Below, piece by piece: positions 1-15,919 of a stretch of DNA of 64,000 bases (the stretch's first letter is position 1; the number at the start of each line of letters is the position of its first letter). The stretch comes from a bacterium. GTDB lineage: Bacteria; Patescibacteriota; Minisyncoccia; Phycocordibacterales; GCA-002787175. The notes under the pieces were generated by a model. That model was not told the origin of the DNA. It saw only the letters and a list, made by a program, of their open reading frames with translations, and made no database searches. Made by a program: the position numbers and the translations under genes. The stretch is taken from assembly GCA_030699905.1 (NCBI GenBank), contig JAUYKQ010000010.1, forward strand, positions 2,554-66,553, written 5' to 3'.

Positions 1-938
1 AGCTGACTATATCGGTAGAATCCCAGGGAAGCGGATTATCGCGGATAAAAACGCAGATGAACGCTGATTGGGACAATACCGAGGGAAGATTTGTGTACTA
101 AATAGTGGGAAACAGGACAATGAATAAATTCCTTCTGGAACTGCGTGCGTTCGGATACGTTCGGCCGTACACCCTTAAATGGGAAGCATCCAGATGTTCC
201 GACTTGAATTTATTTAGGCATGAGTGCTGGTGCCATGCTGTCTTGATCGTTCATCGACCCACTAAGGAGGAATCACCACCCTGCGCAGTATATTCCTCCT
301 TCCTACTATTTAGTACATGAATCGCCCGTAGAGACTAAACGTCAGCCACCCTAAACAGCATGTGTTCGGGTGAAGCTATAGTCCGATCCTCTGAAGTAAT
401 TCAGAGAGACAGGCAGAAATGTCCTGTCCGCGTTTCAGATTCGGGTATGATTCGGGATCGTCTTGATTCGAGTCAATTCGGATTTGTTTACGGAGTAACA
501 AGATGCGTAAGACAGGTTGGTCTCCTATCTACTGCAGGCGTTGATTCTTGAAGGGAGTCATCCCTAGTACGAGAGGACCGGGATGAACTGACCTCTGGTC
601 TACCTGCTGTTCCCGCCAGGGGCAACGCAGGGTAGCTATGTTGGGAGTGGATAACTTCTGAAAGCATCTAAGAAGGAAGCCAACCCTAAGATTAGGAATC
701 GAGCGTGCGAAGCACGCAGTTCATCAAGTTGAAAGTTCATAAAGTTGTAAAGTTTATAAAGTAAAAACAAAATTTTCTGTTCTTACTTGATAAACTTGAT
801 AAACTTTTTACTTTACAAACTTGTGATTTGCGCGCTTCGCGCGTGAAGGCCCGTGGCAGATGACCACGTTGATAGGCACCAGGTGTAAGCGTCGTAAGGC
901 GTTCAGCCGAGGTGTACTAATTCGCCGATTCTATTAGG
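1..938 (+). rRNA. rrl: 23S rRNA, 3' portion (partial at window start). Positions 1-~480 are the 3' part of a group I intron (R-like element cccgtagagactaaacgtc at ~336-352, S-like gaagctatagtcc at ~375-388). Mature 23S sequence resumes by ~500; helix 98 carries a 140-nt insertion (703-843).
   Basis: Sarcin-ricin loop agtacgagaggaccgg at ~560-575. ctgaaagcatctaag and the 3'-terminal gttgataggc...gtaagcg...gtactaat match the conserved 23S domain VI. Positions 1-480 lack the conserved peptidyl transferase centre motifs and contain group I P7-like elements. Confidence 0.8.
703..843 (+). repeat. Hairpin insertion module in 23S H98. GC-clamp mini-hairpins gcgtGCGAAGCacgc and gcgcGCTTCGCgcg flank an AT-rich imperfect palindrome built from ataaagt and gataaactt units.
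   Basis: Directly visible inverted symmetry. The same clamp pair flanks a module in 16S V3 (10861-11005), and a variant flanks one in 16S V1. Confidence 0.7.
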
Positions 939-1099
939 AAACTTGTAAATCCTCCATATCATATTTAATATGATATGGAGAAAACTTAATCCTGTTACAT
1001 GGAATTTGATTTAAGCTACGTAGAGATACGTATGAAAAAAGCATGGCTTTTATGCAGGACAAAAAGGAAATTCAGAGTTGAAGTGCATTTGAAAATCCT

Positions 1100-1345
1100 G
1101 TGTTGGTGATTTAACGCCGTGGGTACACCCGATCCCATTCCGAACTCGGCAGTTAAGCGCGGTAGTGGCGATGGTACCCGGCGCTTTGCGCGGAAGCGGC
1201 AAGGCAAGTTCGTCAAGTTATAAAGTGTAAAGTTCATCAAGTTAGAGAATTTCTTACTTGAAGAACTTGATGAACTTTTAACTTGATAAACTCACTTTGT
1301 CCGCTTGTGAACAAAGCGCCGGGGAGAGTAGCTAGTCGCCAACAC
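1100..1345 (+). rRNA. rrf: 5S rRNA carrying a ~145-nt hairpin insertion (~1178-1322) in the helix IV/V arm.
   Basis: 5' gtgttggtg pairs with 3' cgccaacac. Conserved ccgaactcggcagttaagcgcggtagtggcgatggtac and gggagagtag are present. The inserted sequence is ~90% identical to the insert in 16S at 12984-13082. Confidence 0.7.
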
Positions 1346-1407
1346 AGGGAGTTTAAATTTCAATCTCTTTTTCAATTTCTTGTTTTTCATAAAGCGGATA
1401 AAACCAT

Positions 1408-1432
1408 GAAGCGGACACCCCCGCTTTTTTGT
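1408..1432 (+). terminator. Rho-independent terminator after 5S (stem agcgg/ccgct plus T6).
   Basis: GC stem followed by tttttt. Confidence 0.5.
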
Positions 1433-1456
1433 TATTGAAAATATTGTTATCATATA

Positions 1457-1493
1457 GGGACTGTTGCCAAAACGGATATTCGGCAACAGTCCC
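1457..1493. mobile_element. Minimal MITE-like hairpin: gggactgttgcc / ggcaacagtccc 12-bp perfect inverted repeat with a 13-nt spacer. Same terminal repeat as the 164-bp element at 34055-34218.
   Basis: Perfect inverted repeat seen in sequence. Shares GGGACTGTTGCC termini with the longer copy. Confidence 0.55.
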
Positions 1494-1501
1494 ATCTAAC
1501 A

Positions 1502-2257
1502 ATGCCTTTATCTTGGTCATCAAAAAGACAGCTTAAGATTCTGTCGGCGTTAACCGCTCTGGTTCTTTTTCTCGTGGCTCTTCCTGCTTTTTTCGTCCTT
1601 TACGAAGAACCGACTTGTTCAGACGGCAACAAAAACCAAGGTGAACAAGGCGTTGACTGTGGCGGGCCATGTCCCGTTCTTTGCGAGGCGGAAGCTCTTT
1701 CGCCCGTAGTTCACTGGCAGAGGGCTTTTAAGGTTCAAGACGGCGTCTACAACGCGGTGGCTTATGTGGAGAACCCAAACCTTAATTCAGGAGCTTACGA
1801 TGTCCCTTACATTTTCAAATTATACGATTCGGAAAATATTTTAGTCCAGGAAAAGCGCGGTAGGGCTGATATACTGCCAAGGAAAATAACAGGCATCTTT
1901 GAAAGCGGTCTTTTGACCGGCAAACGCGTTCCCGCGCGAGCGACTTTTGAATTTTCAGGGAATTTTCTGTGGGTCAAAGAAGAGCCGGAGGATTTAGACG
2001 TGCGCGTAGTGAGCCGCATCCTTAAAAATGAAGAAACCGCGCCGAGAATTGACGCGGTGGTGGAAAATCTGTCTTTGGAAGAGGTTGTGAACGTTGAGAT
2101 TGTGGTTATAGTTTACAATACCGAAGGCAATGCCATGGCTTCATCTAAAACAATAGTGGACAAAATTCCCAAAGAAGGACAAGCTACCATCACTTTCACA
2201 TGGCCTGCTCCTTTCGGCGAGTCATCGGGAAGGATAGAGACGATAATAAACAGGTAA
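1502..2257 (+). CDS. Hypothetical protein: N-terminal TM anchor plus Cys-rich segment (CSDGNKNQGEQGVDCGGPCPVLCE).
   Basis: ORF with a hydrophobic N-terminus. No recognisable family. Confidence 0.45.
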   Translation: MPLSWSSKRQLKILSALTALVLFLVALPAFFVLYEEPTCSDGNKNQGEQGVDCGGPCPVLCEAEALSPVVHWQRAFKVQDGVYNAVAYVENPNLNSGAYDVPYIFKLYDSENILVQEKRGRADILPRKITGIFESGLLTGKRVPARATFEFSGNFLWVKEEPEDLDVRVVSRILKNEETAPRIDAVVENLSLEEVVNVEIVVIVYNTEGNAMASSKTIVDKIPKEGQATITFTWPAPFGESSGRIETIINR

Positions 2258-2262
2258 CTCTA

Positions 2263-3411
2263 ATGTTCGCAAACATCATAAGCTCTTTCGGCGCGCTTTG
2301 GAAGAGACAAAACATTGATTGGGTATTGGCAGGGTCTGTATTACCACTCGTGGTTTCCGGCCTTGTAACAATGAACTCTTTTACCGGAGAGTCGTTTTTC
2401 TTTGAACGTCAGCTTGTGTGGGCTTCTCTCGGTTTTTTTGTCATGTTTGTTTTGAGTTTTGTGGATTGGCGGTTTCTGCGGAGAACAGATGTTTTAGTTA
2501 CCCTGTTTTCAGCGACTTGCGTGGTGCTTTTTCTCTTGTTTTTTTTAGGTAAGACCGTTAAAGGCGCTCAAAGTTGGTTTGACTTCGGTTTTTTCTCTTT
2601 TCAGCCGTCTGATCCGGCAAAAATAATGGTAATACTTATTCTTGCCAAATATTTTTCCAGACGGCATATAGAAATAGCCCATATCAGGCATATTCTTGTT
2701 TCCGGTTTTTACGCTTTTACGCTCTTTCTTCTGGTTTTTCTTCAGCCGGACTTTGGTTCCGCGATCATCATTTTCATGATTTGGTTTGGAATGGTTTTGG
2801 TTTCCGGCTTGTCAAAAAAACATGTTTTTGCCGTTTTTGCCGTTGCTGTTGTGACTTTTTCCGCCTTGTGGTTTTACGTTTTTGAGCCGTATCAAAAATT
2901 GAGGATAATGAATTTTATCCATCCGCTTGCGGATGTTCGCGGTTCCGGATATAACGCGCATCAGTCAACAATAGCAGTAGGTTCCGGAGAGGTTTTAGGC
3001 AAGGGCTTGGGATATGGAACACAGTCGCGACTTAAATTTCTGCCTGAATATGAGACCGATTTTATATTCGCGGCCTTCGCGGAGGAGTGGGGTTTTGTCG
3101 GTGTTACAATACTTTTCGCTTTTTTTGCGATGGTGATTTACCGCATACTTATGAACGCGGTATATGGAGCCACTAATTTTGAAACTCTTTATGCTTTAGG
3201 TTTGGCCATTCTTTTTATGAGTCATTTTGTAATACACATCGGCATGAATATCGGTGTCTTGCCGGTTACCGGTACGACGGTGCCTTTTTTAAGCTACGGA
3301 GGCAGTCATCTGCTCACGGAGTTTTTGGGGCTTGGGATACTCATGGGAATGCGTCGTTACAACAGGGCGACGCACAGAGAGATGGTGAAAAATGAAATAG
3401 TTGGTATATGA
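2263..3411 (+). CDS. SEDS-family peptidoglycan glycosyltransferase (FtsW/RodA).
   Basis: 10-TM protein with the FtsW/RodA signature GSGYNAHQSTIAVGSGEVLGKGLGYGTQSRLKFLPEYETDFIFAAFAEEWGFVG. Start chosen at the internal MFANIIS so it does not overlap the upstream ORF. Confidence 0.85.
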   Translation: MFANIISSFGALWKRQNIDWVLAGSVLPLVVSGLVTMNSFTGESFFFERQLVWASLGFFVMFVLSFVDWRFLRRTDVLVTLFSATCVVLFLLFFLGKTVKGAQSWFDFGFFSFQPSDPAKIMVILILAKYFSRRHIEIAHIRHILVSGFYAFTLFLLVFLQPDFGSAIIIFMIWFGMVLVSGLSKKHVFAVFAVAVVTFSALWFYVFEPYQKLRIMNFIHPLADVRGSGYNAHQSTIAVGSGEVLGKGLGYGTQSRLKFLPEYETDFIFAAFAEEWGFVGVTILFAFFAMVIYRILMNAVYGATNFETLYALGLAILFMSHFVIHIGMNIGVLPVTGTTVPFLSYGGSHLLTEFLGLGILMGMRRYNRATHREMVKNEIVGI

Positions 3412-3426
3412 TATCGTCTAAGTCGC

Positions 3427-4713
3427 TTACGCGTCGTACACGTTGACTGTTTTTATTAGCATTTCTTCAAATGAAAAGTCGGACATTATTTTTTCTTTGA
3501 GTTTGGCGCCAAACTGTTTTCTGTGGTTTTTACGAAGTATCAGGAATTTAATGGCGCTCCTTAACTCTTCGGCCGATTCCGGCCTTACTAAAATTCCAGA
3601 TTCCATGTCAGTGATTATTTCCGGTATTCCGCCGACACTTGAAGCCACTACCGGCAGACCGGCGGCTCCCGCTTCCAAAACGGCGTAAGGCAGACCTTCT
3701 TTTAGGGAAGGGAACAAGAACAAATCAAGTCCTTTCAAGAAGACAGACGCCTCTTCCATATGACCCTTGAATTTGACGCTGTCTTGAATTTCGTACTTTA
3801 AAACCTGACTTTCCAGATTCTGTCTTTCTTCTCCTTCGCCTACCACGACCAAGACAAAATGTTTATAAGGCAATCCATACAGTTCTTTGTCTTTTAAAAT
3901 GTCGGCAAAGGCCTTTATCGCAAAAAACAGGCCTTTGTTTTTATGAAGTTCTCCAAGAGTTCCTATCATGAATGTTTCTTTGCCGTGTTTGTCATCCGAC
4001 ATTTCTTCTCTGGATTCGGACATTTTTTTGAATTTTTGAGGTCTGACGCCGTTTCTTATGAGGGTGATTTTGTCTTTGGATGTTAAGAAGCAAGGGGAAA
4101 GGTTCTCGTCATCCTTGGAAACGGCAATAACTCGGTCGGAGAAAAACACTGAAAGCCAAGATCCAAAAAACGATACGGCGCGAAAAAAGATGCCCCGTTT
4201 TTCTTTAAATGGCCAGCCGTGAACAGTGAATACGACTCGCGCGGAACTCGCCGTTTGGCTGTCCGTGTTCAAAAATGGAATATGGGAAACAAAATTTGTT
4301 AAAAAAGATGCTAAAGAGCCGAGGAATGCCGCCTTGGGACTGTTTAAATGTATAATGTCAGGCCTTTCTTTTCTTAGGATTTTTACAAGTTCCCAGAGTG
4401 ATTTAAATTCTCCCAGAAAAAAAATTTCCCGCGTAAAAGTTTTGACAAAAACAGTCCTGACTTTTTTTAGGGAAAGTTTTCTCGCAAGCTCTCCGGGTGC
4501 GCTTCCCATGGCACCCGTCCCGCCAAGCACTACCACGTTTTCGTATTTTTCCTTTGGCAGGGAAGTCGCCAAGTCATAAACGTATCTTTGAGCTCCTCCC
4601 CAGTTGCTTTTGGTTATCACAAAAAGCACTTTCTTTTTCAGCACCGGTTCCATGTCTGTATTATATTTCTTTTTTTGGTTTTCCGCCATAAAACTGGAAA
4701 TTGCGCGCCCCAT
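3427..4713 (-). CDS. Glycosyltransferase family 4 (GT-B, group 1). Start may instead be MAENQ (4689) or MEPV (4653).
   Basis: C-terminal EX7E-type motif EGLPYAVLEAGAAGLPVVASSVGGIPEII. Confidence 0.75.
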   Translation of the reverse strand: MGRAISSFMAENQKKKYNTDMEPVLKKKVLFVITKSNWGGAQRYVYDLATSLPKEKYENVVVLGGTGAMGSAPGELARKLSLKKVRTVFVKTFTREIFFLGEFKSLWELVKILRKERPDIIHLNSPKAAFLGSLASFLTNFVSHIPFLNTDSQTASSARVVFTVHGWPFKEKRGIFFRAVSFFGSWLSVFFSDRVIAVSKDDENLSPCFLTSKDKITLIRNGVRPQKFKKMSESREEMSDDKHGKETFMIGTLGELHKNKGLFFAIKAFADILKDKELYGLPYKHFVLVVVGEGEERQNLESQVLKYEIQDSVKFKGHMEEASVFLKGLDLFLFPSLKEGLPYAVLEAGAAGLPVVASSVGGIPEIITDMESGILVRPESAEELRSAIKFLILRKNHRKQFGAKLKEKIMSDFSFEEMLIKTVNVYDA

Positions 4714-4731
4714 GTTGTATCATGTGGGTAC

Positions 4732-6081
4732 ATGTCAGTGAACAACCGCAAAGAAGCCATAGTATTGCTTTTGGGCGACATAATACTTTTGTATTTCGGT
4801 CTCTGGCTCACTTTGTTCGCGCGCCATGGCCGATTGCCGGATAGCGAGCTTCTTTTGGCTCACATAGTTCCTTTTTCTTTCATTTTTCTTGCGTGGCTTA
4901 CTGTCTTTTTTGTAGCCGGTCTTTACGGAAGCCACACTCTTATTTTCAAAAGACGTCTGCCCGGTCTTCTGTTCAAATCTCAAATAGTAAACAGTATTAC
5001 GACTGTTGTTTTTTTCTACGTTATTCCATACTTCGGCATCACTCCGAAAACCATACTTTTCATTTATCTTGTGATTTCTTTCGGTCTGGTTTTGTTTTGG
5101 CGTCTTTACGGTTTCTCCGCTGTCATAAACCCCGCGAAAGAAAACGCAATAATAATCGGCCGTGGAGAAGAACTGAAGGAAATTTTCTACGAAGTCAATT
5201 ATAATCCCAGATACAGCATGAAGTTTATTTCCTCAATAGACACCGACGCGTTGGAGATGATTGACTTTCAGTCCGAAATAGTTGAAAGGGTTTATTCTGA
5301 AAATGTCACTCTTTTTGCCTTGGATTTGCATAATGAAAAGATAAAACCGTTTGTCCCGCATCTTTACAACCTTATCTTTTCCGGCGTCCACTTTGTGGAT
5401 ATGCATAAAATGTATGAAGATATTTGGGGAAGAGTGCCACTGTCGCTTGTTAAATACAACTGGTTTTTGGAAAATATCTCCAGCACGCCCAAGTCATTAT
5501 TTGACGTGTTTAAAAGAAGTATGGATATATTGGTCTCAATACCTCTTCTTTTTGTGCCGGCGGTTTGTTTCCCTTTTGTTTTTGTGGCTATGAAATTGGA
5601 AGACGGCGGTGGCGTCTGGAGCGTGCAGGAGAGAGTAGGCAAGAATAACCTGAAAATAAAGATACTGAAGTTTCGCACAATGACTGTTTCAAACGATTTC
5701 GGCCAGTGGGGCAAAGTTCAAAATAAAGTAACTCGGGTCGGAAATTTTCTAAGAAGGACAAGGTTGGACGAGTTTCCGCAGTTGTGGAACGTGCTTAAGG
5801 GAGACATTTCGCTCATAGGTCCTCGGCCGGAATTTGCCGAAGCGGTAAAACATTATACGGACGAGATACCCTATTACAACGTTAGGCATCTTATAAAACC
5901 GGGTCTTTCCGGATGGGCACAGCTTTATCACGAAAATCATCCTCACCACAAAGCGGACGTTTCCGAAACAAAAGTCAAACTTTCTTACGATTTGTATTAC
6001 ATCAAGAATCGTTCGTTTTGGTTGGATTTTAGGATAGCCCTGCAGACGGTGCGGACATTGTTGTCGCGGTCGGGAATGTAA
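4732..6081 (+). CDS. Polyprenyl-phosphate sugar-phosphate transferase (WbaP/bacterial sugar transferase family): N-terminal TM segments plus a cytoplasmic catalytic domain.
   Basis: C-terminal bacterial sugar transferase motifs KFRTM...DEFPQLWNVLKGDISLIGPRPE. Start at MSVNNRKE. Confidence 0.8.
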   Translation: MSVNNRKEAIVLLLGDIILLYFGLWLTLFARHGRLPDSELLLAHIVPFSFIFLAWLTVFFVAGLYGSHTLIFKRRLPGLLFKSQIVNSITTVVFFYVIPYFGITPKTILFIYLVISFGLVLFWRLYGFSAVINPAKENAIIIGRGEELKEIFYEVNYNPRYSMKFISSIDTDALEMIDFQSEIVERVYSENVTLFALDLHNEKIKPFVPHLYNLIFSGVHFVDMHKMYEDIWGRVPLSLVKYNWFLENISSTPKSLFDVFKRSMDILVSIPLLFVPAVCFPFVFVAMKLEDGGGVWSVQERVGKNNLKIKILKFRTMTVSNDFGQWGKVQNKVTRVGNFLRRTRLDEFPQLWNVLKGDISLIGPRPEFAEAVKHYTDEIPYYNVRHLIKPGLSGWAQLYHENHPHHKADVSETKVKLSYDLYYIKNRSFWLDFRIALQTVRTLLSRSGM

Positions 6082-6192
6082 AGCAGAGCGTGGAACGTGT
6101 AGCATGTAGCATGGAACATAAAAAGAAAATTCTTTTTCTGAATTTAAGGGCGAGTTTGGCGATTTGTTTGAATATGTTCCAGCCCGCCATAA

Positions 6193-6297
6193 CCCCACGA
6201 CACTTTGGCCGACAATTCCTTGGCAAAGAAACTTATCGGTTGGGAGCCGGAGGTGACGCTGGAGGAAGGGATTGATAAACTTAAAGAATTCTGTCAT
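6193..6297 (+). pseudogene. Orphan C-terminal fragment (~34 codons) of an NAD-dependent sugar epimerase/dehydratase gene: ...SLAKKLIGWEPEVTLEEGIDKLKEFCHDKF*.
   Basis: Translated frame gives the typical epimerase C-terminus. No upstream coding continuation (stop at 6190). A second copy of 55 nt of it sits at 6779-6840. Confidence 0.45.
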
Positions 6298-6778: not shown

Positions 6779-6840
6779 ACTGCTTGGCAAAGAAACTTAT
6801 CGGTTGGGAGCCGGAGGTGACGCTTGAGGAGGGGATCGGG
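6779..6840 (+). repeat. Second copy of the epimerase C-terminal remnant (direct repeat of 6218-6280; 42 nt identical, ~55 nt similar).
   Basis: cttggcaaagaaacttatcggttgggagccggaggtgacgct is identical in both copies. Confidence 0.6.
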
Positions 6841-6868
6841 GAGTTAAGTAGAAGTTTTAAAAGTTAAC

Positions 6869-7282
6869 ATGAAATTTGTGAACATGAGCCGAACAAAAAT
6901 AACAGCTGTTATAGCGGCAATAATGCTTTTTGTGGCGGGAATATTTATATATGGGATTAGAAAACCGATCTGGTTTGATAGCGGTTTACCAAATGAATTT
7001 TATGGAGGGATTGTTATCCTGTTTAGCATTTTCCACCTACATATCGCGCTTAGTAAAGAAAAATACGATTACCTCACGGGACTGAATGTATCAAGCATAA
7101 TTGCATCTATTTATTATTTTTTGATATGGAATTACGAATTAAATAATCCTACTTCCAATCTTGGTTTAGAGTTCGTCGTTGAGTTCCCGATTATGGTTGC
7201 CGTAATTTTGTTTTATGCGCTTGCTCTTATTCTGAATATTGCCGATTTTCTTTCAAAGATTATTCAAAAAGTAAGAAAATAA
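6869..7282 (+). CDS. Small integral membrane protein, hypothetical.
   Basis: ORF with hydrophobic segments. Confidence 0.4.
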   Translation: MKFVNMSRTKITAVIAAIMLFVAGIFIYGIRKPIWFDSGLPNEFYGGIVILFSIFHLHIALSKEKYDYLTGLNVSSIIASIYYFLIWNYELNNPTSNLGLEFVVEFPIMVAVILFYALALILNIADFLSKIIQKVRK

Positions 7283-7332
7283 TTACCTTTTGACAAGGAA
7301 CCCGAATAAAACCTTTGTTTCTAAGGTAAAAA

Positions 7333-7366
7333 ACGCCTAATACTGACCAGTATTAGCCGTTTTTAG
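7333..7366 (+). terminator. Rho-independent terminator (ctaatactg/cagtattag stem plus T5).
   Basis: Hairpin followed by ccgttttt. Confidence 0.55.
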
Positions 7367-7517
7367 AGGTCCGCACTCATTTCATTACTTTGAGTTACGA
7401 AACTCTATAGGCGGTTCGTTGGAATTGCGTGTAAAAAATTGTGTCATAATTTGAACATTCAAAAAACGGCTATGGCAAAACATTGAAAATTCTGTTGATA
7501 TCCGCTATCATACCGGT

Positions 7518-8801
7518 ATGCTTAAGCACAGAATATGGGCCGTCATAATTTTACTTGCCGCTGTCGGTTTGGGTTTTTTTGTTTTCTCGTCCGAGAAAAA
7601 CAAAACCGATTTCGCTTTTGAATACGGTCTGGACCTTACCGGCGGTACCCATCTTGTTTATAAAGCTCAAACTCAAGAAATTCCTTCCGGTGAACGAGAT
7701 GAGGCGATGCGCTCCCTTCGCGATGTTATTGAAAGGCGTGTCAATCTTTTTGGCGTTTCAGAGCCAATTGTCCAGGTTGAAAAGAGCATTCTCCAAGACG
7801 ATGACCGTCTGATAGTGGAGTTGCCGGGAGTCACAGACGTTGAAGAGGCCGTAAAAAGGATAGGCCAAACGCCGGTTTTGGAATTCCGACTCGGTCTTGA
7901 TATTTCGGATTTCACCGAAGAAGAAATATCCGCTTTAACTGGCGAAGATTTCTGGCAGTACACGGGTCTTACCGGCCGTCTTGTAAAGAGAGCTCAAGTT
8001 TCTTTTGAGGGTGGAGCCACGGGAGTGGCCGAGCCCGCTGTGCTTTTGACCTTCAATGATGAAGGTGCGGAGCTTTTCGCGAGCATTACCAGAGACAATA
8101 CCGGCCAGGTTTTAGGCATATTTCTTGATGGGATACTGATATCGGATCCGGTAATACGGGAAGAGATTCCTACCGGTACTGCCGTTATCTCCGGCAATTT
8201 CAACGCCCAAGATGCCCGTGAGCTTGTTCGAGACCTGAATTTCGGCGCCTTGCCTGTTCCTGTTGAACTCATCTCCACAGAGTCCATCGGCCCCACTCTC
8301 GGTAAAGAGGCCTTACAAAAAGGGCTTAAGGCCGGAGCCGCGGGGCTCTTCCTTGTGGTCGTGTTCATGCTTCTCTGGTACCGTTTGCCCGGTTTAGTCG
8401 CTGTTTTGTCTTTATCTGTTTATCTGGTGTTGATGCTCGCGGTATTCAAGCTCGTGCCGGTTGTTCTTACGGCAGCCGGAGTCGCGGGATTCATAATTTC
8501 AATAGGAATGGCGGTGGACGCCAACATTCTGATTTTTGAACGTCTGAAAGAAGAAATACGCGAAGGCAAGACCGGAGCCGAAGCGGTGCATAGCGCTTTT
8601 AAACGCGCGTGGCTCGCTATTCGTGATGGGAATCTGACCAGCATTCTTACCGCCATCGTGCTTTTTTACGCAGGCACTTTTCTTACACAAAGCTTTGCCT
8701 TAACATTTGGCATGGGTGTTTTGCTTAGCATGCTGACGGCGGTAACCATAACGAGGACATTTCTTTTGGCAATAGTTCGCAAATCTTATTCGGGTAATTA
8801 G
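7518..8801 (+). CDS. secD: Protein translocase subunit SecD.
   Basis: N-terminal TM, large periplasmic domain, C-terminal 5-TM SecD/SecF domain (LAVLSLSVYLVLMLAVFKLVPVVLTAAGVAGFIISIGMAVDANILIFERLKEE). Confidence 0.9.
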   Translation: MLKHRIWAVIILLAAVGLGFFVFSSEKNKTDFAFEYGLDLTGGTHLVYKAQTQEIPSGERDEAMRSLRDVIERRVNLFGVSEPIVQVEKSILQDDDRLIVELPGVTDVEEAVKRIGQTPVLEFRLGLDISDFTEEEISALTGEDFWQYTGLTGRLVKRAQVSFEGGATGVAEPAVLLTFNDEGAELFASITRDNTGQVLGIFLDGILISDPVIREEIPTGTAVISGNFNAQDARELVRDLNFGALPVPVELISTESIGPTLGKEALQKGLKAGAAGLFLVVVFMLLWYRLPGLVAVLSLSVYLVLMLAVFKLVPVVLTAAGVAGFIISIGMAVDANILIFERLKEEIREGKTGAEAVHSAFKRAWLAIRDGNLTSILTAIVLFYAGTFLTQSFALTFGMGVLLSMLTAVTITRTFLLAIVRKSYSGN

Positions 8802-8830
8802 AGTTTTTAAATTCGGGACTGATTAGAGAT

Positions 8831-9769
8831 ATGACTATTATAAAATACAAAAAAATATTCTTTATCGTTACGGCTATTTTCATAGTGGCCGCCATCGCGT
8901 CTATTTCCTTCTTTGGTCTTTCCGTGAGCATTGATTTTACCGGTGGATCCATATTTGAAATAAACTACTCGGCAGAAAGGCCGACAAAAGCGGCGCTTGA
9001 GGAAAGGTTAAGTGGGGAAGGGATAAACGGCTTTTCCGTCCGTCCTTTGGGAGATAGAGGTTTTATCATACGCACGCCCGAGGCGGGGGACGACGAGAGA
9101 GCAAAGGTAGCAAGCGCGATATCTTGGGAAAGTTACGAGTCGTCAATAGACCGTTTCAGCTCTATCGGTCCGACCGTCGGCAGTGAACTGAAAACCAAGG
9201 CCCTTATCGCCATCATCGTTGTTCTTTTGATTATAATTTTCTACATTGCCTACACTTTCAGAAAAGTCGGCGGAGAAAAAGACAGCGTTTCGGCAAGGAC
9301 GGAAGTGGAAACGTTGCCTTCTTCTTTGAAATACGGACTTACCGCCATAATAACTTTAGGACACGACATTATCGTGCCAGCGGGAGCTTTTGCCGTTTAC
9401 GGGTATTTTACAGGCGCTCAAGCAGATGTTCTTTTTGTCATGGCGCTTCTTGCCATACTCGGTTATTCCGTCAATGACACCATAGTCATTTTTGACCGCG
9501 TACGAGAGAATCTTCTCAATAACAAAAAAGATAACCACAAAGAAACATTTGACGAAACGGTCGGCAAAAGCTTGTCTCAAACATACGCTCGTTCCATAAA
9601 CACTTCTCTGACCACTCTTTTTGTTCTCATAACTCTGTTTTTTATCGGTAGCGAAACAACCGCCGCCTTTGCCTTTACTTTGCTTGTTGGCGTCATCGCC
9701 GGCTCGTACTCGTCCATCTGTTTCGCCGCGCCGCTTCTTACGTCGTTCGCGAAAAAAACCCATAATTAA
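8831..9769 (+). CDS. secF: Protein translocase subunit SecF.
   Basis: SecF architecture and motifs (DFTGG..., ITLGHDIIVPAGAFA, DTIVIFDRVRENL). Confidence 0.9.
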   Translation: MTIIKYKKIFFIVTAIFIVAAIASISFFGLSVSIDFTGGSIFEINYSAERPTKAALEERLSGEGINGFSVRPLGDRGFIIRTPEAGDDERAKVASAISWESYESSIDRFSSIGPTVGSELKTKALIAIIVVLLIIIFYIAYTFRKVGGEKDSVSARTEVETLPSSLKYGLTAIITLGHDIIVPAGAFAVYGYFTGAQADVLFVMALLAILGYSVNDTIVIFDRVRENLLNNKKDNHKETFDETVGKSLSQTYARSINTSLTTLFVLITLFFIGSETTAAFAFTLLVGVIAGSYSSICFAAPLLTSFAKKTHN

Positions 9770-9819
9770 AGTCGTGGCAGTCAACCGTCTTCCTGTGGCT
9801 TTTTTGTTGATTAACTTCA

Positions 9820-9847
9820 TTGACAACACATTCAATATGAGTATAAT
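9820..9847 (+). promoter_or_regulatory. Consensus sigma70-type promoter TTGACA-16-TATAAT, ~340 nt upstream of 16S. Candidate rRNA promoter.
   Basis: ttgaca (9820-9825), 16-nt spacer, tataat (9842-9847). Confidence 0.55.
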
Positions 9848-11675
9848 AGCCGATACTGCCTTCAAAGGAGAAGGTGTGGACTTTGACAATTAAAACTTGA
9901 AATATTAAAGATTTGAGACGTGCAAGGTCTCAAAGTCTATTCCTTCCCGGCAGTAGAGAATTAAAAATTTTCACTGCGGGAAAAAAATGATTCCACCGGC
10001 TGACTAAGACAGCCGGCAGAGCAAGTTCAAACTCTTAAAACAACAAACAAAATTTCAGCAAAAACTGTCTTTTGTTTTGTTCCGTTCTAAAAATGCAGAC
10101 AAGATGCAAACAAAACTCCGGCGGACGAGGGAGGCAACTCCTCCGTAGGTCGGAGCGATGTAGGCAATAATGTCCTCATTTCTTAAATTAGAGTTTGATC
10201 CTAGCTCAGGATGAACGCTGGCGGCGTGGATAAGGCATGCAAGTCAAGGGTGTGTGCGGAGCACACAGTTTATAAAGTTATAAAGTCATAAAGTTCATAA
10301 AGTCAGAATCTTCTGCTTTACAAACTTTTTACTTTACGAACTTGTAACTTGTGCGCTTCGCGCACAACCGGCAGACGAGGTAGTAATAAGTAGGAATGTC
10401 CCCAAGAGTCAGGCATAGCTACGCGAAAGCGTGGGTAATTCCTGATGGTCTGACCGCATCACATGGAATGTGAATTAAGTTTATCAAGTTCATAAAGTTG
10501 CAAGTTTATAAAGTAAGACCAATGCCGGATTTTTTAGGCTCGCTTTTCTTACTTGATGAACTTTATAACTTTTTACTTTATAAACTTATTTCGCCTCTCA
10601 TGTGATGCGGTCAGTAAAGTCGCAAGACGCTTTTGGAACAGCCTACTCGGTATCAGCTAGATGGTAGGGTAATGGCCTACCATGGCTATGACGCCTAGGG
10701 GGGGTGAGAGCCCGATCCCCACCGATCGGACTGAGATACGGCCGATACACCTACGGGTGGCTGCAGCCGAGAATATTCCGCAATGGGCGAAAGCCTGACG
10801 GAGCGACGCCGCGTGGTTGATGAAGTTCTTAGGAATGTAAAAACCTTTTATTAGGGAGGAAGCGTGCGAAGCACACTGTACATGACACTGATGACACGAA
10901 TGTAAAGAACGAATGACACGAATAAAATTAACAAGACTTGATTTTATTCGTGTCATTCGCATCTTCTATTCGTAGATTCGTGTCGAGTTCAGCGCGCTTC
11001 GCGCGTTTGACGTTACCTGATGAATAAGGGGTTGCTAAACTCGTGCCAGCAGCAGCGGTAATACGAGTGCCCCGAGCGTTATCCGGAATCATTGGGCGTA
11101 AAGGGTGTGTAGGCGGCTTTGTTAGTCCTCTGTTAAATTCTTCGGCTCAACCGGGGTCTTGCAGGGGATACGGCAAAGCTTGAGGGTGTGAGGGGTGAAT
11201 GGAACTCATGGTGTAGGGGTGAAATCCGTTGATATCATGGGGAACACCAAAAGCGAAGGCAATTCACTGGCGCACTCCTGACGCTGAAACACGAAAGCGT
11301 GGGTAGCGAATGGGATTAGATAATCCTTGCCCGCTAATAAAACATAGGCAAAAGGTGTCTCTCCCGAAGGCGACTTCGGGATGAAAATCTAGCTGTATCG
11401 GGGAAACTCTCTGACACTATGCGCTTACTGGCGCGTTGGAGACAATCCCGAGGGAAGTTTTCTTGCATTGAAAGAAGGTTAATTTACCTGCATTGTAATT
11501 CTTGGAGCAATGCTGGTGCGAGTAAGGGAAAAGAAAAACAACTGTCCATAGTCGGAGGGTTGGGTGTTGCGGGGCTATCTGCACATCTCTTTGTCCAGGA
11601 AAAACCACCAACAGAAAGCGTGAGTAATTCGTGAAAGCGTGAATATGTGTCCCTTACTCAATTTGTTCTTTGGGC

Positions 11676-11754
11676 GCGGATGTAGCTCAGTTGGAATGAG
11701 TATCACCTTGATAAGGTGAGGGTCGCAGGGTTCGAATCCTTGCCATCCGCTCCA
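11676..11754 (+). tRNA. tRNA-Ile(GAU)-like sequence embedded in the 5' half of the 16S site-788 intron. Cloverleaf with a slightly long variable/T region; may be a functional tRNA, a pseudo-tRNA or a tRNA-like intron domain.
   Basis: Acceptor gcggatg/catccgc, D-arm gctcagttggaatgagt, anticodon stem tcacc/ggtga with loop ttGATaa, T-loop ggttcgaatcc, 3' tcca. ~70% identical to bacterial tRNA-Ile(GAU). Confidence 0.55.
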
Positions 11755-11871
11755 TTTTTCCGCCGAATTTTCGAAAAATTTGGCACCTTCTTTCAGTGCA
11801 AGACGACCCCGTAGAGACTATGAAATTGAGCAAGATAGTTGGTGCATTTTCTGTCGTAATGCAAAAAATAT

Positions 11872-12639
11872 ATGCAAAACGCGGATTCAAAATATGTGCC
11901 TTTGTCGAATCAAGTGCGAGCCATTATTCTAGGGTCAATTCTTGGAGATGGGTCGCTCAAGATTCAAAACGAGTACGCCAATGCGAATTTACAAATTCGT
12001 CATTCGGAAACTCAAAAAGACTATCTCTTATGGAAAGCGAATGTGCTTAAAGAGATAGCCGGAGATGGTAGTGTGAGCGTGCAAAAGCCGGATGGATACA
12101 GTACGAAGCCAAAGTGGAGGTTCAGGAGCAAGAGAACTCCAGCATTGACCGAACTGCATCATTTGACCTATAAGCACAATGCCTTGCGCATCAGGCGCAC
12201 ATGGTTAAATCAAATGAACGCTTTGTCGCTCGCCGTATGGTGGTGCGATGACGGTTCACTTATTGGCTACGGAGGCAGAAAAGGGGTGTTTTGTACCGAC
12301 GGCTTTGATGAAGAGTCAGTCAAAATACTTGCTCGCTATCTTGGAGTGGTTTGGAACATACGAGCGATAGTTGCTCCTGTCGGGCGAAAGCGCGATGGAA
12401 AGCAAGATCAGTATTGGCGGTTATGGATTCGTTCGCAGGAAGAATTGAAGAAATTTCTGCGTATTATCCTGCCGTACATACCTGTTTCGAGTATGCTCAA
12501 AAAAGCCATTCTACTCTATAAAGACCCTCAATTTCAACAACGCTGGATATCTGAAGTAATCAAGCTAAGTCCTTTTCCAGAATCTGTCATACTGGCGGAA
12601 TTTGAAAAAAAGAAAGCTAAATGGAATTGCTACAGATAA
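11872..12639 (+). CDS. LAGLIDADG homing endonuclease, double-motif, intron-encoded.
   Basis: Motifs LGSILGDGSL and LAVWWCDDGSL. Located inside the 16S intron. Confidence 0.85.
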   Translation: MQNADSKYVPLSNQVRAIILGSILGDGSLKIQNEYANANLQIRHSETQKDYLLWKANVLKEIAGDGSVSVQKPDGYSTKPKWRFRSKRTPALTELHHLTYKHNALRIRRTWLNQMNALSLAVWWCDDGSLIGYGGRKGVFCTDGFDEESVKILARYLGVVWNIRAIVAPVGRKRDGKQDQYWRLWIRSQEELKKFLRIILPYIPVSSMLKKAILLYKDPQFQQRWISEVIKLSPFPESVILAEFEKKKAKWNCYR

Positions 12640-12818
12640 AGATATAGTCCGGACTGCATGGAAACATGTAGAGCGAGGCAGAAATGCCCTCGCCTCCGCA
12701 TCAGGCGGAAGTAACATTTTCAACCCCAGTAGTCCACGCCCTAAACGATGTTCATTTGCTTTTCGGAGTATCGACCCTCTGAGAGGCGTAGCTAACGCGT
12801 TAAATGAACCGCCTGGGT

Positions 12819-12850
<32 letters not shown>

Positions 12851-13267
12851 AGACGGGGACTTGCACAAGCGGTGGATCATGTGGTTTAATTCGATACTAA
12901 ACGAAGAACCTTACCAAGCCTAGACATCCAAGGGAACTCCAGTAGAAATATTGGAGGCCACCACTTTGCGCGGAAGACGCAAAGTGAGTTCGTCAAGTTA
13001 TAAAGTATAAAGTTCATCAAGTTAGAGAATGTCTTACTTGATAAACTTTAAGAACTTTTGACTTGATAAACTTACTTTGTTCGCTTGCGAACAAAGTGCG
13101 GGGAGGAAGGCGAGGATGACGCCAGATCAGCATGACCCTTTGACGGCTTGGGCTACACACGTGATACAATGGCTGTTACAACACGTTTGCGACGGAGTAA
13201 TCCTGAGCTAATCGTTATAAAAGCAGCCCCAGTTCGGATTGAGGTCTGCAACTCGACCTCATGAAGT

Positions 13268-13314
<47 letters not shown>

Positions 13315-13322
13315 TCAAGTCT

Positions 13323-14262
13323 TGTACTCGGGTCGCCATGCGATCGAGTACGCTAGTTGGTGACCCGTCCTTCGTTAAAATTACGGAGGGCACGGTCCAG
13401 CTGTAATTTTTGAGCTTAATTAAATAAAAACCCCTGCTTATTTTATAAGGGGGGTTTAGGATCTAGAACTCTGAAAGCTGTTGTTGCGAGTTTCTATCTC
13501 TATTCTGCGGGACCGGCGTTGGATCTATTCAAACCAACCGCTTTCGCTTTTGGGGACTGATTTCGAACATTCTTCCAGAACTCCCTGACAAGATCCCTAA
13601 TTAATTAGGTCAGGACTATGTTACATGTTATCATATCTTGTGTTATCAGTCAAGAGCTTGAAAATTACAGCTGGACACGTTTTCGCTGAAGCTATAGCGA
13701 GGCGAGGAAATCCAACCAAGACAATTCACAGTGTCTTGAAGCGAAATACTAGTCTACTGTCCGCGAGGACTATAGATGAAGGAGTAAAGTAGCATTTCTT
13801 AGCTTGAATGCCAGTCATGGCGCATAACAGAGGTTATCCTGCGAGTACATGGAGAAACCTACTGTGTTACAAAAACTGTTATGCGTATCGTGGCATCGAG
13901 ATGAGAAAAAACAGTGTATTCGGTTACCGTGGGAGATCTCACTTGTTCTTTGTTTTTAAAGAGCAAAGTAAGCAATATATTAGGACGGGCAAAAATTTCC
14001 TAAAGTATTGATTAACAATAAGTGAGAAGTCTGCAGAGTCCGTAGTACCTATCGAAGTAAAATTTGATAGGGAAGGGACGAACTTAGAGGTTGTATGTAA
14101 TTTTTAATTTTGCATTGCTTGTCCCGTAGCGAGTTCTGCTCTGCTACAGGGATCATTTTGCATTTTGAGATTTGCATTTTAAATTTCTAAGAACCGCTAG
14201 GGTGCGGGAAAACCGCTTGCCCAGTGGTGTTTGGCTATTGAAAATAAATATCAATTGACCGA
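13323..14262 (+). other. ~940-nt ORF-less insertion in 16S near E. coli site ~1390, between cttgtac and accgcccgtca. Contains a long-range inverted repeat (13395-13411 / 13664-13680). Possibly a degenerate intron or other intervening sequence.
   Basis: Flanking conserved 16S segments gaatacgttctc...cttgtac and accgcccgtcaactcaagggagt. No ORF longer than 67 aa. Confidence 0.5.
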
Positions 14263-14353
14263 AAAACCGCCCGTCAACTCAAGGGAGTTGGGAATACCCG
14301 AAGCGCACGCTTTGCGTGCACTACGGTAAGCTCAATAACAGGGAGTAAGTCGT

Positions 14354-15287
14354 TATTGTAAAATACAATTGCGACCTGTCAAGGAAACTTGACAGAAAAA
14401 TCCAACTGAAATCGGTGAACCCCTCCTCTTTAATTTGTTATAATTAAAGGCATGAAGGCAATACCGAGGGAAGCTGGGAGAGTCACTTATTCAACGGAGA
14501 TTCGAAAGTTAAAAAATATTTCTTTTACCGAGGAGCAAAGAGCTCTCATTATTGGAAGTATTTTAGGCGACGGATGTCTGTGTGATAATTGGTCAAAGAC
14601 CAATTATCGTTTGTTTATCAATCATTGTCTGGGACAAAAAGATTACGTATGGTGGAAATACGGTGTTCTTAAGAATTATATCCTTTCAGAACCTAGATAC
14701 TATGATAGGAATAATTCCCTTACTATCCGGACCATTAGTCACTCTGAATTATCAGAATTGCGGAATGTTTTCTACAGAGATAAACAAAAAATAATTCCTC
14801 AAAATATTCAAGAATTTCTAAAGGATCCTCGCGTGCTTGCAGTATGGTTTATGGATGATGGTAACAATGTTATCCGGAATGGAAAAATTATTGGTTACCA
14901 CATCAACACACAATCATTCACACGAAAAGAAAATAAATTGCTTGCAAAATGTCTGTATGCCATTTACGGCATAGAAGCTCTGTTAGAACGAAATCATAAA
15001 AGGTATAGATTAGCAATTTGGAAGCGAGATTCGAGGTTGAAAATTAGAAACTTGGTAAAGCCGTATGTATTGGAAAGTATGCAATACAAACTCGGTTGAA
15101 TAAGCGACTCTCCTTAGCCCCGTAGAGACTGGATTCCGCTTAAAAGCGGATGAAGATAGCATGCACATAATGTGTCGCAGTGCCTCGACATTGCGATTAC
15201 GGTGCTATAAAACGTTGGCTCCATTGATAATTATCAATCGGATGAAGATATAGTCCATGCCCCAATGAAAATTGGGGAGAGAACATG
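14354..15287 (+). mobile_element. Group I intron at 16S site 1506 (between GUCGU and AACAAGG) with an internal homing endonuclease ORF. 5' exon ends in U; intron ends in G (omega G at 15287). R-like ccgtagagactgg ~15123-15136, S gaagatatagtcc ~15243-15256, P9-like hairpin ccccaatgaaaattgggg.
   Basis: Precise restoration of gtaagtcgt|aacaaggcacgggtagcggaagctgc (h45). Canonical P7 elements are present. Confidence 0.75.
14452..15099 (+). CDS. LAGLIDADG homing endonuclease, double-motif, intron-encoded.
   Basis: Motifs IIGSILGDGCL and LAVWFMDDGN. Confidence 0.85.
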   Translation: MKAIPREAGRVTYSTEIRKLKNISFTEEQRALIIGSILGDGCLCDNWSKTNYRLFINHCLGQKDYVWWKYGVLKNYILSEPRYYDRNNSLTIRTISHSELSELRNVFYRDKQKIIPQNIQEFLKDPRVLAVWFMDDGNNVIRNGKIIGYHINTQSFTRKENKLLAKCLYAIYGIEALLERNHKRYRLAIWKRDSRLKIRNLVKPYVLESMQYKLG

Positions 15288-15765
15288 AACAAGGCACGGG
15301 TAGCGGAAGCTGCTCGTGGAATATTTCAAGTGAACAATGTCAGGAGCGGATTATCGCGGATAAAAACGCTGATAGACGCCGATGACTGAACGAGTCGATA
15401 TCGCTATCTCTACGGAGTAAGCGGTGGATAAGATTAATATCCTAAAAAAAATCTGACAGACCGGAAAGACGGCACCCGCCGTATCACATGGAATGTGATA
15501 GCGGAAATCCAAAGCACGAAATACTAAATCCTAAACAATATCAAAATTCAAATGACAAAAATTCCAAACAGTAGTCTCTATTTTGAATTTAATATTTTGA
15601 TAATTTGAATTTGTTTCGGATTTCGGTATTAGAATTTCGGATTTTCCGCATCATCGTGTCTCATGTGATGCGGCGGTAAGGAACGGAACAAAACAAAGGA
15701 CAGAAGGTAAAAGAAATTTCAATTTCTAATTGTCTAATTCACATAGATGAAGACAAAGAAGGGTC

Positions 15766-15799
15766 AAAAAAACGGCTAAATATATTTAGCCGTTTTTTT
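15766..15799. terminator. Bidirectional rho-independent terminator: palindrome cggctaaata|tatttagccg flanked by A7 and T7.
   Basis: Perfect palindrome with flanking A/T runs. Confidence 0.6.
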
Positions 15800-15842
15800 G
15801 TTGCTATAGCGCGCTATTTTTGGTATATTTTCAGAGTAATTT

Positions 15843-15919
15843 GCGAGTGTAGCTCAGGTGGTTAGAGCACTCCACTGATAATGGAGAGGTCCCAAGTTCG
15901 AGTCTTGGCACTCGCACCA
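15843..15919 (+). tRNA. tRNA-Ile(GAU), with encoded CCA.
   Basis: gcgagtg ta gctc aggtggtta gagc a ctcca ctGATaa tggag aggtc ccaag ttcgagt cttgg cactcgc a cca: a canonical cloverleaf. Confidence 0.85.

Follow-up and report, generated by a model that had tools for sequence, protein, structure and literature searches.

How a bacterial 16S ribosomal RNA (rRNA) gene can come to span more than 5 kb, and whether a copy that in addition lacks part of its own rRNA could serve a ribosome, are the questions raised by a locus in contig JAUYKQ010000010.1 of assembly GCA_030699905.1. The analysis covers 64,000 nucleotides (nt) of this contig, a stretch that we refer to as the window and whose positions are used for all coordinates. 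The gene is very probably the 16S gene of a bacterium of the Candidate Phyla Radiation (CPR, or Patescibacteria), apparently forming a transcription unit of its own, with a length of 5.1 kb that it owes to three mobile introns and four hairpin modules. The nearest named relative of the source organism is a metagenome-assembled genome (MAG) of Candidatus Vogelbacteria.

The anatomy of the gene, its homology to relatives and the synteny of the locus were read directly from the sequences. RNA genes were located with Rfam models and ARAGORN, proteins were assigned with Pfam, and structure matches were sought in the PDB. Related loci comprised 120 metagenome loci fetched with the pattern GATGACGCCAGATCAGCATG and five loci from GTDB genomes; they are cited by number where a distinction is needed. 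The closest, L129 (a MAG), shares about 93% identity with the window over the aligned 16S segments. Insertion sizes are anchor-to-anchor distances compared with those in approximately 60-110 related 16S genes (the clade median), and intron boundaries were read off the sequences of uninterrupted relatives. A separate assembly of two SRA runs (SRR13727534, SRR26726065) provided Logan contigs that are 100% identical to the window over 1129-6248, 6795-10215, 11297-12749, 11544-12750 and 14403-15306. A scan of genome contigs with SecF peptide patterns, which proved too specific, returned no relatives.

Seven insertions in one 16S gene

Matches to the Rfam model SSU_rRNA_bacteria (RF00177) extend from 10183 to 11392 (646 bits) and from 12576 to 13354 (366 bits), so that the model is matched across the molecule, and the 3' exons of the gene were placed by alignment to relatives. 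Seven insertions interrupt the gene: four hairpin modules, located in helices 6, 10 and 17 (h6, h10 and h17, a notation used below for all 16S helices) and at the h40 site, two group I introns, and one group IIC-type intron without an open reading frame (ORF).

10183..15322, + strand: 16S rRNA gene as assembled; exons about 1330 nt; mature 3' end not defined; no CCUCC tail
10263..10357, + strand: hairpin module 1, h6 tip; 95-nt insertion in the Rfam alignment; z = -8.6
10461..10604, + strand: hairpin module 2, h10; 144-nt insertion in the Rfam alignment; z = -12.0
10871..11002, + strand: hairpin module 3, h17; 132-nt insertion in the Rfam alignment; z = -10.7
11322..12722, + strand: intron 1, group I, between GAUUAGAU and ACCCC at about E. 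coli position 794/795; boundaries ambiguous by 1 nt (11323-12723)
12964..13103, + strand: hairpin module 4, h40 site; 140 nt; z = -9.3
13330..14265, + strand: ORF-less group IIC-type intron, between GUACUC and ACCGCCCG (1396/1397; rns-1396 / 16IS9); boundaries from uninterrupted relatives
14354..15287, + strand: intron 3, group I, between GUCGU and AACAAGG at about E. coli position 1498/1499; +934 nt relative to relatives

Relative to the clade median, the gene is longer by 102 nt at h6, 157 nt at h10, 141 nt at h17, 1401 nt between GGGATTAGATA and CCCCAGTAG, 936 nt between GTACTC and ACCGCCCG, and 934 nt between GTAAGTCGT and AACAAGG. The total inserted length is about 3.8 kb, and the rRNA-like remainder of about 1330 nt compares with 1480-1510 nt in uninterrupted relatives. 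Two kinds of insertion would thus account for the inflation of the gene, three mobile introns lying within universally conserved sequence and four rod-like modules lying at the tips of variable helices.

Exon pairings and P7 motifs identify the two group I introns. Uninterrupted relatives read GGGATTAGATACCCCAGTAG at the intron 1 site. The intron 1 guide GGUGUCU (11354-11360) pairs with AGAU-ACC, and the intron 3 guide UUGCGAC (14369-14375) pairs with GUCGU-AA, the hyphen marking the exon junction; a U.G pair stands at each 5' splice site. These 7-nt pairings, continuous across the ligated exon junction, were read directly from the sequence. In both introns the P7 strands have the form CCCCGUAGAGACU...AGAUAUAGUCC, of which AGAUAUAGUCC is the J8/7-P7 motif; they lie at 11807-11822 and 12639-12654 in intron 1 and at 15118-15132 and 15244-15259 in intron 3. 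The guanosine-binding pair in P7 of intron 1 looks standard, and the terminal nucleotide of intron 3 is a G (15287). Homologues occupy the same sites in relatives, that of intron 1 in L078 and those of intron 3 in L049, L096, L029 and L056.

Each of the two introns encodes a protein with a full complement of LAGLIDADG motifs:

11872..12639, + strand: LAGLIDADG_2 gene of 255 amino acids (aa), in the P8 region of intron 1; Pfam 109 bits
14452..15099, + strand: LAGLIDADG_2 gene of 215 aa, in intron 3; Pfam 133 bits

The PF03161 profile is covered from position 1 to 161 by the intron 1 protein and from 2 to 165 by the intron 3 protein, out of 168, and the translations contain two LAGLIDADG motifs apiece (ILGDGS and WWCDDGS; ILGDGC and WFMDDGN). 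The intron 1 protein matches PDB entry 6x1j (E = 1e-4) and is 84% identical in amino acid sequence to the L078 ORF; the intron 3 protein matches I-SceI structures (E = 2e-14) and is 50-56% identical to ORFs at the same site in relatives. Both proteins can be classed as I-SceI-like LAGLIDADG homing endonucleases and would cleave the intronless targets GGGATTAGATACCCCAGTAGTCC and GTAAGTCGTAACAAGGCACGG, as has been demonstrated for one CPR enzyme, I-ShaI (PMC11270868). The group I introns would spread through endonuclease-driven homing, and their RNA would remove itself from the precursor by self-splicing.

A third group I intron lies in the 23S gene, where its 5' part is cut off by the start of the window:

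1..506, + strand: group I intron of the 23S gene, 3' part

Its core contains the J8/7-P7 motif GAAGCTATAGTCCG at 372-385 and CCCGTAGAGACTA at 325-337, motifs common to both 16S group I introns. The core motifs CCCGTAGAGACTA and GAAGCTATAGTCC are shared with the 16S introns, and GTAAGACAGGTTGG (about position 2593) directly follows the intron. Two copies of a 39-nt direct repeat that begins AGCGGATTATCGCGGATAAAAACGC lie at 30-68 in this intron and at 15345-15383, just after the 16S 3' end, and are 90% identical.

The 936-nt insertion belongs to a different class. Its site, 16S position 1396/1400, is that of the rns-1396 / 16IS9 family, and members of the same family occur at this site in L006, L049, L062, L074, L075, L095, L099 and L129. 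The following parts were recognized within it:

14009..14078, + strand: group II D1-D4 motif; RF01998 44.3 bits, gathering score 35
14192..14229, + strand: domain V-like helix, 14 bp, with CGC triad and G.U pair; 3' strand bulged by 2 nt
14230..14265, + strand: D6-like hairpin and intron end, directly after the domain V-like helix

RF01998, which models an 84-position motif and not all six domains, scores above its gathering threshold in L129, L062 and L049 as well. The domain V-like helix was spotted by eye and then backed by covariation: it is 100% paired in four distinct sequences, and all three variable pairs are compensatory. The G of its CGC triad forms the G.U pair. In the relatives L049, L074, L095, L099, L062 and L129, a single-motif LAGLIDADG ORF (GFIDGEGSF...) lies between the D1-D4 motif and domain V. 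At this position the window intron carries about 100 nt of unrelated sequence, and no ORF of more than 67 aa is present anywhere in 13330-14265. Judged by its site, its motifs and its relatives, the insertion belongs to the rns-1396/16IS9 family of group IIC introns and appears to have lost its LAGLIDADG ORF. Approximately 345 extra nt are found at 13363-13707. A variable insert of about 340 nt occurs early in domain I of the window copy (13363-13707), of L129 (1655-1995) and of L062, its sequence differing among the three; L049-type copies have only about 20 nt there. The window version of this insert contains a terminator-like hairpin (13428-13460) and no ORF of more than 35 aa.

Intron 1 carries, in addition to its endonuclease gene, a transfer RNA (tRNA)-like gene within a peripheral domain:

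11676..11754, + strand: tRNA-Ile(GAU)-like gene; ARAGORN; RF00005 57.5 bits
11454..11807, + strand: peripheral domain with the tRNA-like gene; closing stem 11454-11479 / 11785-11807 (minimum free energy fold)

The acceptor stem of the nested tRNA is perfect, its anticodon loop canonical and its CCA encoded; U73, a weak D arm and one extra base are also present. It is 100% identical in Logan contigs from the two runs, 73% identical to the resident tRNA-Ile gene of the locus, and at most 76% identical to any tRNA-Ile of the related loci, of which none of 97 has a tRNA inside the 16S gene. The homologous domain of L078 is shorter, lacks the tRNA, and is closed by a stem of different but complementary sequence. 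The endonuclease ORF starts 117 nt downstream of the nested tRNA. We can only speculate on its presence: it may be a captured passenger, or it may act as a processing signal at which an RNase P cut releases the endonuclease mRNA. An arrangement of two half genes separated by a spacer tRNA was considered and rejected, since the junction is exact to the base, the guide spans it, and the L078 intron is the same without the tRNA.

The hairpin modules are the second kind of insertion. In addition to the four in the 16S gene, modules are present in the 23S gene, in the 5S gene and in the 3' trailer:

approximately 700-845, + strand: hairpin module in the 23S 3' end; -60.4 kcal/mol, z = -8.1
1097..1348, + strand: 5S rRNA gene, the hairpin loop of helix IV being occupied by a 140-nt module (1184-1323); RF00001 match 1101-1219
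15470..15675, + strand: hairpin module in the 3' trailer (spacer); z = -7.5

All of them, in 16S, 23S, 5S and trailer, fold as long rods (-49 to -79 kcal/mol; z from -7.5 to -12), and none was found outside the rRNA loci within the window. They share a common build of a GC-rich base and an AU-rich distal arm composed of short repeats, ATAAAGTT for example. In the base, a short palindromic arm is present twice, and the two copies can fold either as a clamp or as a pair of small tetraloop hairpins. Over 140 nt the 5S module shares 88% identity with that at the h40 site, and it is the single insertion in a 5S gene that otherwise aligns end to end with the 5S genes of four relatives, which have none.

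The occupants of individual helices differ between close relatives. L109 and L078 have an h40-loop module with the same flanks and unrelated central arms. The window h10 module (10449-10617) is 94% identical to L129 modules in h17 and the spacer (1-133, 3461-3617); the window h40/5S module (12958-13106) matches the h44 module of L129 (3006-3142); the window h17 module (10942-10996) matches an L129 module just after the 16S (3308-3359); and the core of the window spacer module (15501-15647) matches the L129 h40 module (1224-1367) at 77%, within spacer flanks that are 96% identical to the L129 spacer. The exchange of cassettes thus appears to keep pace with, or to outrun, the divergence of the rRNA. 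The modules are probably mobile cassettes that move among the helix tips of 16S, 23S and 5S and the spacer, a proposal that we regard as much more probable than the expression of the gene as it is assembled. Module exchange on this pattern implies rapid swapping of cassettes among rRNA helix tips. The modules most resemble intervening sequences that RNase III excises without religation; alternatively, the ribosome would keep them as expansion segments. A search for RNase III signature motifs, covering the 64-kb window only, was negative. As with splicing and homing, cutting by RNase III would be expected from the families of element to which the insertions belong.

The 3' end of the gene has no CCUCC anti-Shine-Dalgarno tail, and none was present within 30 nt after h45 in any of 99 related loci. 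The 3' tail (window 15320-15345) reads GGAAUAUUUCAAGUG. The window ORFs show no upstream enrichment of Shine-Dalgarno-like motifs, which precede 5 of 42, compared with 15% of random 17-mers. By the evidence of these loci, absence of the anti-Shine-Dalgarno sequence is a trait of the clade and no defect of the window copy. A candidate alternative 3' end, a GAAA-loop hairpin followed by CCCCTCCTC at 14390-14435 that looks like h45 and an anti-Shine-Dalgarno sequence, was rejected because uninterrupted relatives join GTCGT directly to AACAAGG; the true h45 lies at 15294-15319, and the whole clade is without CCUCC.

An initial annotation of this locus had described about 5.1 kb holding some 1.25 kb of rRNA-like sequence, broken by four hairpin modules, two group I introns with intact homing endonucleases and a 940-nt insertion without an ORF. 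The span (10183-15322) and the inventory and coordinates of the insertions stand: Rfam alignment, anchor distances in relatives and strong folds all bear out the modules, and both endonuclease ORFs are full-length LAGLIDADG_2 genes. The long insertion, 936 nt by our boundaries, is indeed ORF-less, and its probable identity as a group IIC intron of a known family can now be added. The figure for rRNA-like sequence has to be raised to about 1330 nt, and it had masked a real shortfall against relatives, in that the exons do not amount to a complete 16S.

The missing segment and other irregularities

The shortfall is concentrated at one point, between intron 1 and the h40 module:

12950..12973, + strand: junction of the missing 16S segment, running from ATTGGAGGCCAC into CACTTTGCGCGG; gap placed at 12955-12963

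About 122 nt are missing, comprising the 3' part of h33, the 5' strand of h34, h35-h39, and the 5' strand of h40. The distance from CGAAGAACCTTACC to the end of the h40 5' strand is a constant 169 nt in relatives and 46 nt in the window. Neither of the conserved motifs GTCGTCAGCTCGTG and GGTTAAGTCCCGCAACGAGCGCAACCC occurs anywhere in the 64-kb window, and a 143-position profile built from 93 relatives found nothing there (best E = 2.8). As written, the assembled copy cannot build a normal head of the 30S subunit. L129, L078, L123 and L062 keep the segment and have, in addition, an intron inside it. A single fetched locus, L057, has no h34-h37 motifs; it is not a 16S gene and represents a chance match within a GC-rich coding region.

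The extra intron in that segment lies at about position 1078, between GTCGTCAGTTCGTGGTTTGAA and GAATTGTTCCCTTAAGTGGGG, and was observed in L129 (740-1128), L078, L123, L062/L081 and L056; in L129 it is ORF-less. L078 also contains a LAGLIDADG_2-like ORF about 32% identical to the intron 3 enzyme of the window (tblastn).

Several observations weigh against taking the locus as a 16S gene inflated by mobile introns and modules. The segment just described is kept by every true 16S relative among the 120 fetched loci that has enough upstream sequence. An independent contig across 12950-12973 was sought through five spurious ORFs (12886-14011) in a gene-position index, and none was recorded, as was also the case for the PALP gene. 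The group I model RF00028 gives 34.0 bits (E = 7e-6) for intron 1 and 32.8 bits (E = 1.5e-5) for intron 3, both under its gathering score of 50. Intron 1 lacks the terminal G required for exon ligation: its last nucleotide is A under either boundary (12722/12723), and the same base is found in both Logan contigs. For the 936-nt intron, the domain V/VI model RF00029 gave no match even at E = 10; an 8-nt 5' linker, GGGUCGCC, precedes AUGCG, and there is no GUGYG start; and the 3' end is AA where relatives have AU.

Some of these irregularities recur in the clade or in related elements. A terminal A is also found in L001, L002 and L078, whereas G is the last base of the same-site introns of L085 and L102. 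A change of the terminal G to C stops exon ligation in tRNA introns of Patescibacteria (PMC13011429), and the completion of intron 1 splicing with a terminal A is therefore unexplained. A 5' terminal linker has been described for some LAGLIDADG group II families (PMC13190283). Taken together, the loss of the ORF, the 345 extra nt, the 5' linker and the AA end indicate that the window copy of the group IIC intron may be decaying and partly degenerate.

To the missing segment itself we give about even chances of being an artefact of assembly or curation, in which two contigs were joined end to end and the gene is complete in the cell, probably with a further intron near position 1078. The lost piece is the stretch most shared with other organisms, and the right edge of the gap is the start of a module; both features make such a join plausible. 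The missing piece is conserved core (GTCGTCAG...GCAACGAGCGCAACCC) with lineage-specific sequence on both sides, and all Logan contigs of the organism break inside conserved 16S stretches. To the right of the junction, the sequence begins at base one of a repeated module, and the L129 contig likewise starts inside such a module. In L129, L078, L123 and L062 an intron lies in exactly this interval, which would complicate assembly. A single 16S copy is usual in CPR genomes (PMC11270868), and the retained exons, including the partnerless 3' strand of h34, show no deviation at conserved columns. An intact path would run ATTGGAGG...GTCGTCAGTTCGTG...GTAACGAACGCAACCC...CCCCG-CACTTTGCG. Against a join of this kind, the junction contains no Ns and no long repeat, the possible overlap being only about 3 nt (CAC), and an independent assembler recovered the remainder of the locus without differences.

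The deletion might instead be real, the window holding a recently inactivated 16S copy while an intact second copy elsewhere makes the ribosomes. We consider this rather unlikely. It would account for the absence of the h34-h40 segment, and maturation could be impaired both by the A that ends intron 1 and by the group II intron, which is ORF-less, ends in AA and has a 345-nt extra insert. The retained exons, however, have no excess of substitutions. They contain zero changes at columns conserved in at least 97% of relatives, which argues against long-standing decay. The promoter-like site and a 24-bp processing stem around the gene are likewise intact, the terminal A is common to L078, where h34-h40 is intact, and no second 16S copy exists in the 64 kb, CPR genomes usually having one (PMC11270868). 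Between a contig join across the most conserved stretch and a real deletion, a join is somewhat more likely.

It is very improbable that the gene is expressed as written. In that case the subunit would work without the region from the h34 5' strand to the h40 5' strand, or the piece would be supplied in trans by a fragment encoded elsewhere, the way fragmented rRNAs of organelles are put together. The precursor would also undergo cutting or splicing at seven sites and set free a tRNA-like RNA from within an intron. The rest of the gene does look fully constrained, and the rRNAs may already be cut at the modules. But no fragment resembling the missing piece is present anywhere in the window, all true 16S relatives fetched, including the one about 93% identical, keep the piece in place, and the unchanged h34 3' strand is sensible only if its partner exists. 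Helix 34 is part of the decoding site.

Gene order and transcription unit

The 16S gene, which we continue to read as an inflated gene of a CPR bacterium, is separated from the 23S and 5S genes by protein-coding sequence and is bracketed by its own signals:

507..930, + strand: 23S 3' end; RF02541 match 542-930, 195 bits
1502..9769: protein genes between 5S and 16S, namely an unknown ORF, FtsW, GT4 glycosyltransferase (- strand), sugar transferase, SecD and SecF (Pfam)
9820..9847, + strand: promoter-like site TTGACA-16-TATAAT (12/12), 335 nt upstream of the 16S; a consensus match with a putative function
10065..10088, + strand: leader strand of the processing stem, pairing with 15680-15703
15680..15703, + strand: trailer strand of the processing stem, pairing with 10065-10088
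15765..15800, no strand assigned: terminator-like hairpin separating the 16S unit from tRNA-Ile, T runs on both strands
15843..15919, + strand: resident tRNA-Ile(GAU), canonical, A73; 72 bits

The 23S exon resumes at 507 (GTAAGACAGGTTGGTC), about E. coli position 2593 by our own alignment. Leader and trailer form an uninterrupted duplex of 24 bp (-38.7 kcal/mol; z = -6.6 against shuffles; RNAduplex, trailer to 15842), so that the two ends of a 5.6-kb unit would be tied together; with a shorter trailer (to 15480) the duplex is no better than shuffles (z = -0.2). From the promoter-like site, the stem that brackets the gene and the terminator-like hairpin, the 16S appears to be its own transcription unit.

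The same arrangement recurs in relatives. SecD-SecF lies upstream of the 16S in about 30 related loci, the block from FtsW to SecF recurs in L024, L035, L009 and L033, and L033 has 23S-5S, about 6 kb of genes, and then 16S-tRNA, all on one strand. A tRNA-Ile(GAU) gene follows at most 1.5 kb downstream of the 16S in 55 of 97 related loci, and the resident tRNA-Ile is 97% identical to its L129 orthologue. No 23S was found downstream of the 16S in any relative scanned. Among the Logan contigs, L130 is 100% identical over 1129-6248, which takes in the 5S gene and ftsW through the sugar-transferase gene, and L124 spans secD, secF and the 16S 5' end. The synteny and shared order among relatives argue that the contig is not chimeric at this scale and that the arrangement is ancestral to the clade; the order 23S-5S, ftsW...secDF, 16S, tRNA-Ile is, as far as these loci attest, conserved in the clade. 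That the unlinked order reflects a chimeric contig is hardly credible, for although rRNA genes are common misassembly points, the L033 order, the recurrent secD-secF and FtsW-to-SecF neighbourhoods, the Logan contigs L124 and L130 that span parts of the block, and the lack of a 23S after the 16S in scanned relatives all speak against it.

The initial annotation had placed the 16S downstream of the 23S-5S pair on the same strand, with ftsW and secDF between, and here Rfam and Pfam agree, including on the strands. It had also taken the unlinked order 23S-5S...16S-tRNA-Ile as an inversion of the canonical operon; the order itself is confirmed, but it is conserved across the clade and no peculiarity of this contig. 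Comparison with related CPR loci, which it had proposed as a check, corroborates both insertion sites and gene order. Of the two findings that it had named as grounds for discarding the account, a chimera at the scale of the locus is contradicted by the synteny of relatives and the Logan contigs, and a second canonical rRNA operon was sought with Rfam, which locates no second 16S within the window.

Two pairs of direct repeats were observed outside the rRNA loci: 6219-6272 / 6783-6836 (54 nt, 96% identical, 564 nt apart) and 63425-63466 / 63506-63547 (42 nt, 100% identical, 81 nt apart).

Relation to known rRNA insertions

Interrupted and unlinked CPR 16S genes are already documented, and the window is one more example. 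Unlinked rRNA genes are typical of Patescibacteria, a group that is listed as having exclusively unlinked genes (Brewer et al., 10.1101/705046). The gap of 8.8 kb between 5S and 16S, with six ORFs of which five have a Pfam family, places the locus among unlinked genes (16S and 23S more than 1.5 kb apart, with other genes between), and nothing essential differs from that study; the window adds an exact conserved neighbourhood. According to Tsurumaki et al. 2024 (PMC11270868), insertions in CPR rRNA genes were reported by Brown et al. 2015; the survey of Tsurumaki et al. found that 48% of 16S genes carry them, a single gene having as many as 16, with a summed length of at most 5,627 bp. The window shares with this survey several insertions per 16S, LAGLIDADG_2 group I introns at recurrent conserved sites, and ORF-less insertions of less than 200 bp at helix tips, and its total of about 3.8 kb is within the published maximum. 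In the survey, group II-like, LAGLIDADG_1-bearing insertions occur only at about position 1400 of CPR 16S, 14 of them being ORF-less; the window insertion at that site is likewise group II-like and without an ORF. The window differs in four respects: its 5S gene carries 140 nt, whereas the survey of 645 CPR 5S genes found no insertion of at least 100 bp; its intron 1 contains a tRNA gene, and the survey makes no mention of tRNA genes inside introns; the survey contains no description of sequence-related modules shared by 16S, 23S, 5S and spacer; and the window copy is also short of about 122 nt of rRNA.

The group IIC LAGLIDADG family rns-1396 was first seen in Thiomargarita, and a 2026 survey reported it from Thiotrichaceae only (PMC13190283). 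The intron described here resembles this family in its site, between GUAC(A/U)C and ACCGCCCGU, in its IIC-type domain V with a CGC triad and, in the relatives of the window, in the single-motif LAGLIDADG ORF of domain IV. It differs in that the family is here found in Patescibacteria, and in that the window copy has no ORF, an 8-nt linker, 345 extra nt and an AA end. Self-splicing introns within 16S genes of giant sulfur bacteria are said to have been described by Salman et al. 2012. The Thiomargarita sites 795, 1078 and 1495 presumably correspond to sites used in the clade of the window.

The intervening sequences of bacterial 23S and 16S rRNA are excised by RNase III without religation of the fragments. 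The modules resemble them as extended, AU-rich helices, 100-200 nt long, that stand in place of variable helix tips, lack ORFs and are patchily distributed among close relatives, and the leader-trailer stem typical of RNase III processing is present at the window locus. The modules differ from them in being many per genome, in all three rRNAs and the spacer, in sharing GC-clamp flanks and repeat-flavoured arms, and in that the occupants of helices differ at about 93% 16S identity.

We did not find previous descriptions of a 5S insertion of this kind, of the relatedness and site-swapping of modules, of a tRNA-like gene in an rRNA intron, of a group I lineage with terminal A, or of rns-1396 outside Thiotrichaceae. 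A gene as heavily interrupted as this one is a warning, as such genes escape primers and annotation. Compared with the systems known so far, several Patescibacteria contigs carry a group IIC LAGLIDADG family that a recent report had placed in Thiotrichaceae alone, a tRNA-like gene is hosted by a group I intron lineage without a terminal G, and site-swapped modules at about 93% 16S identity point to a fast and unexplained exchange of structured cassettes.

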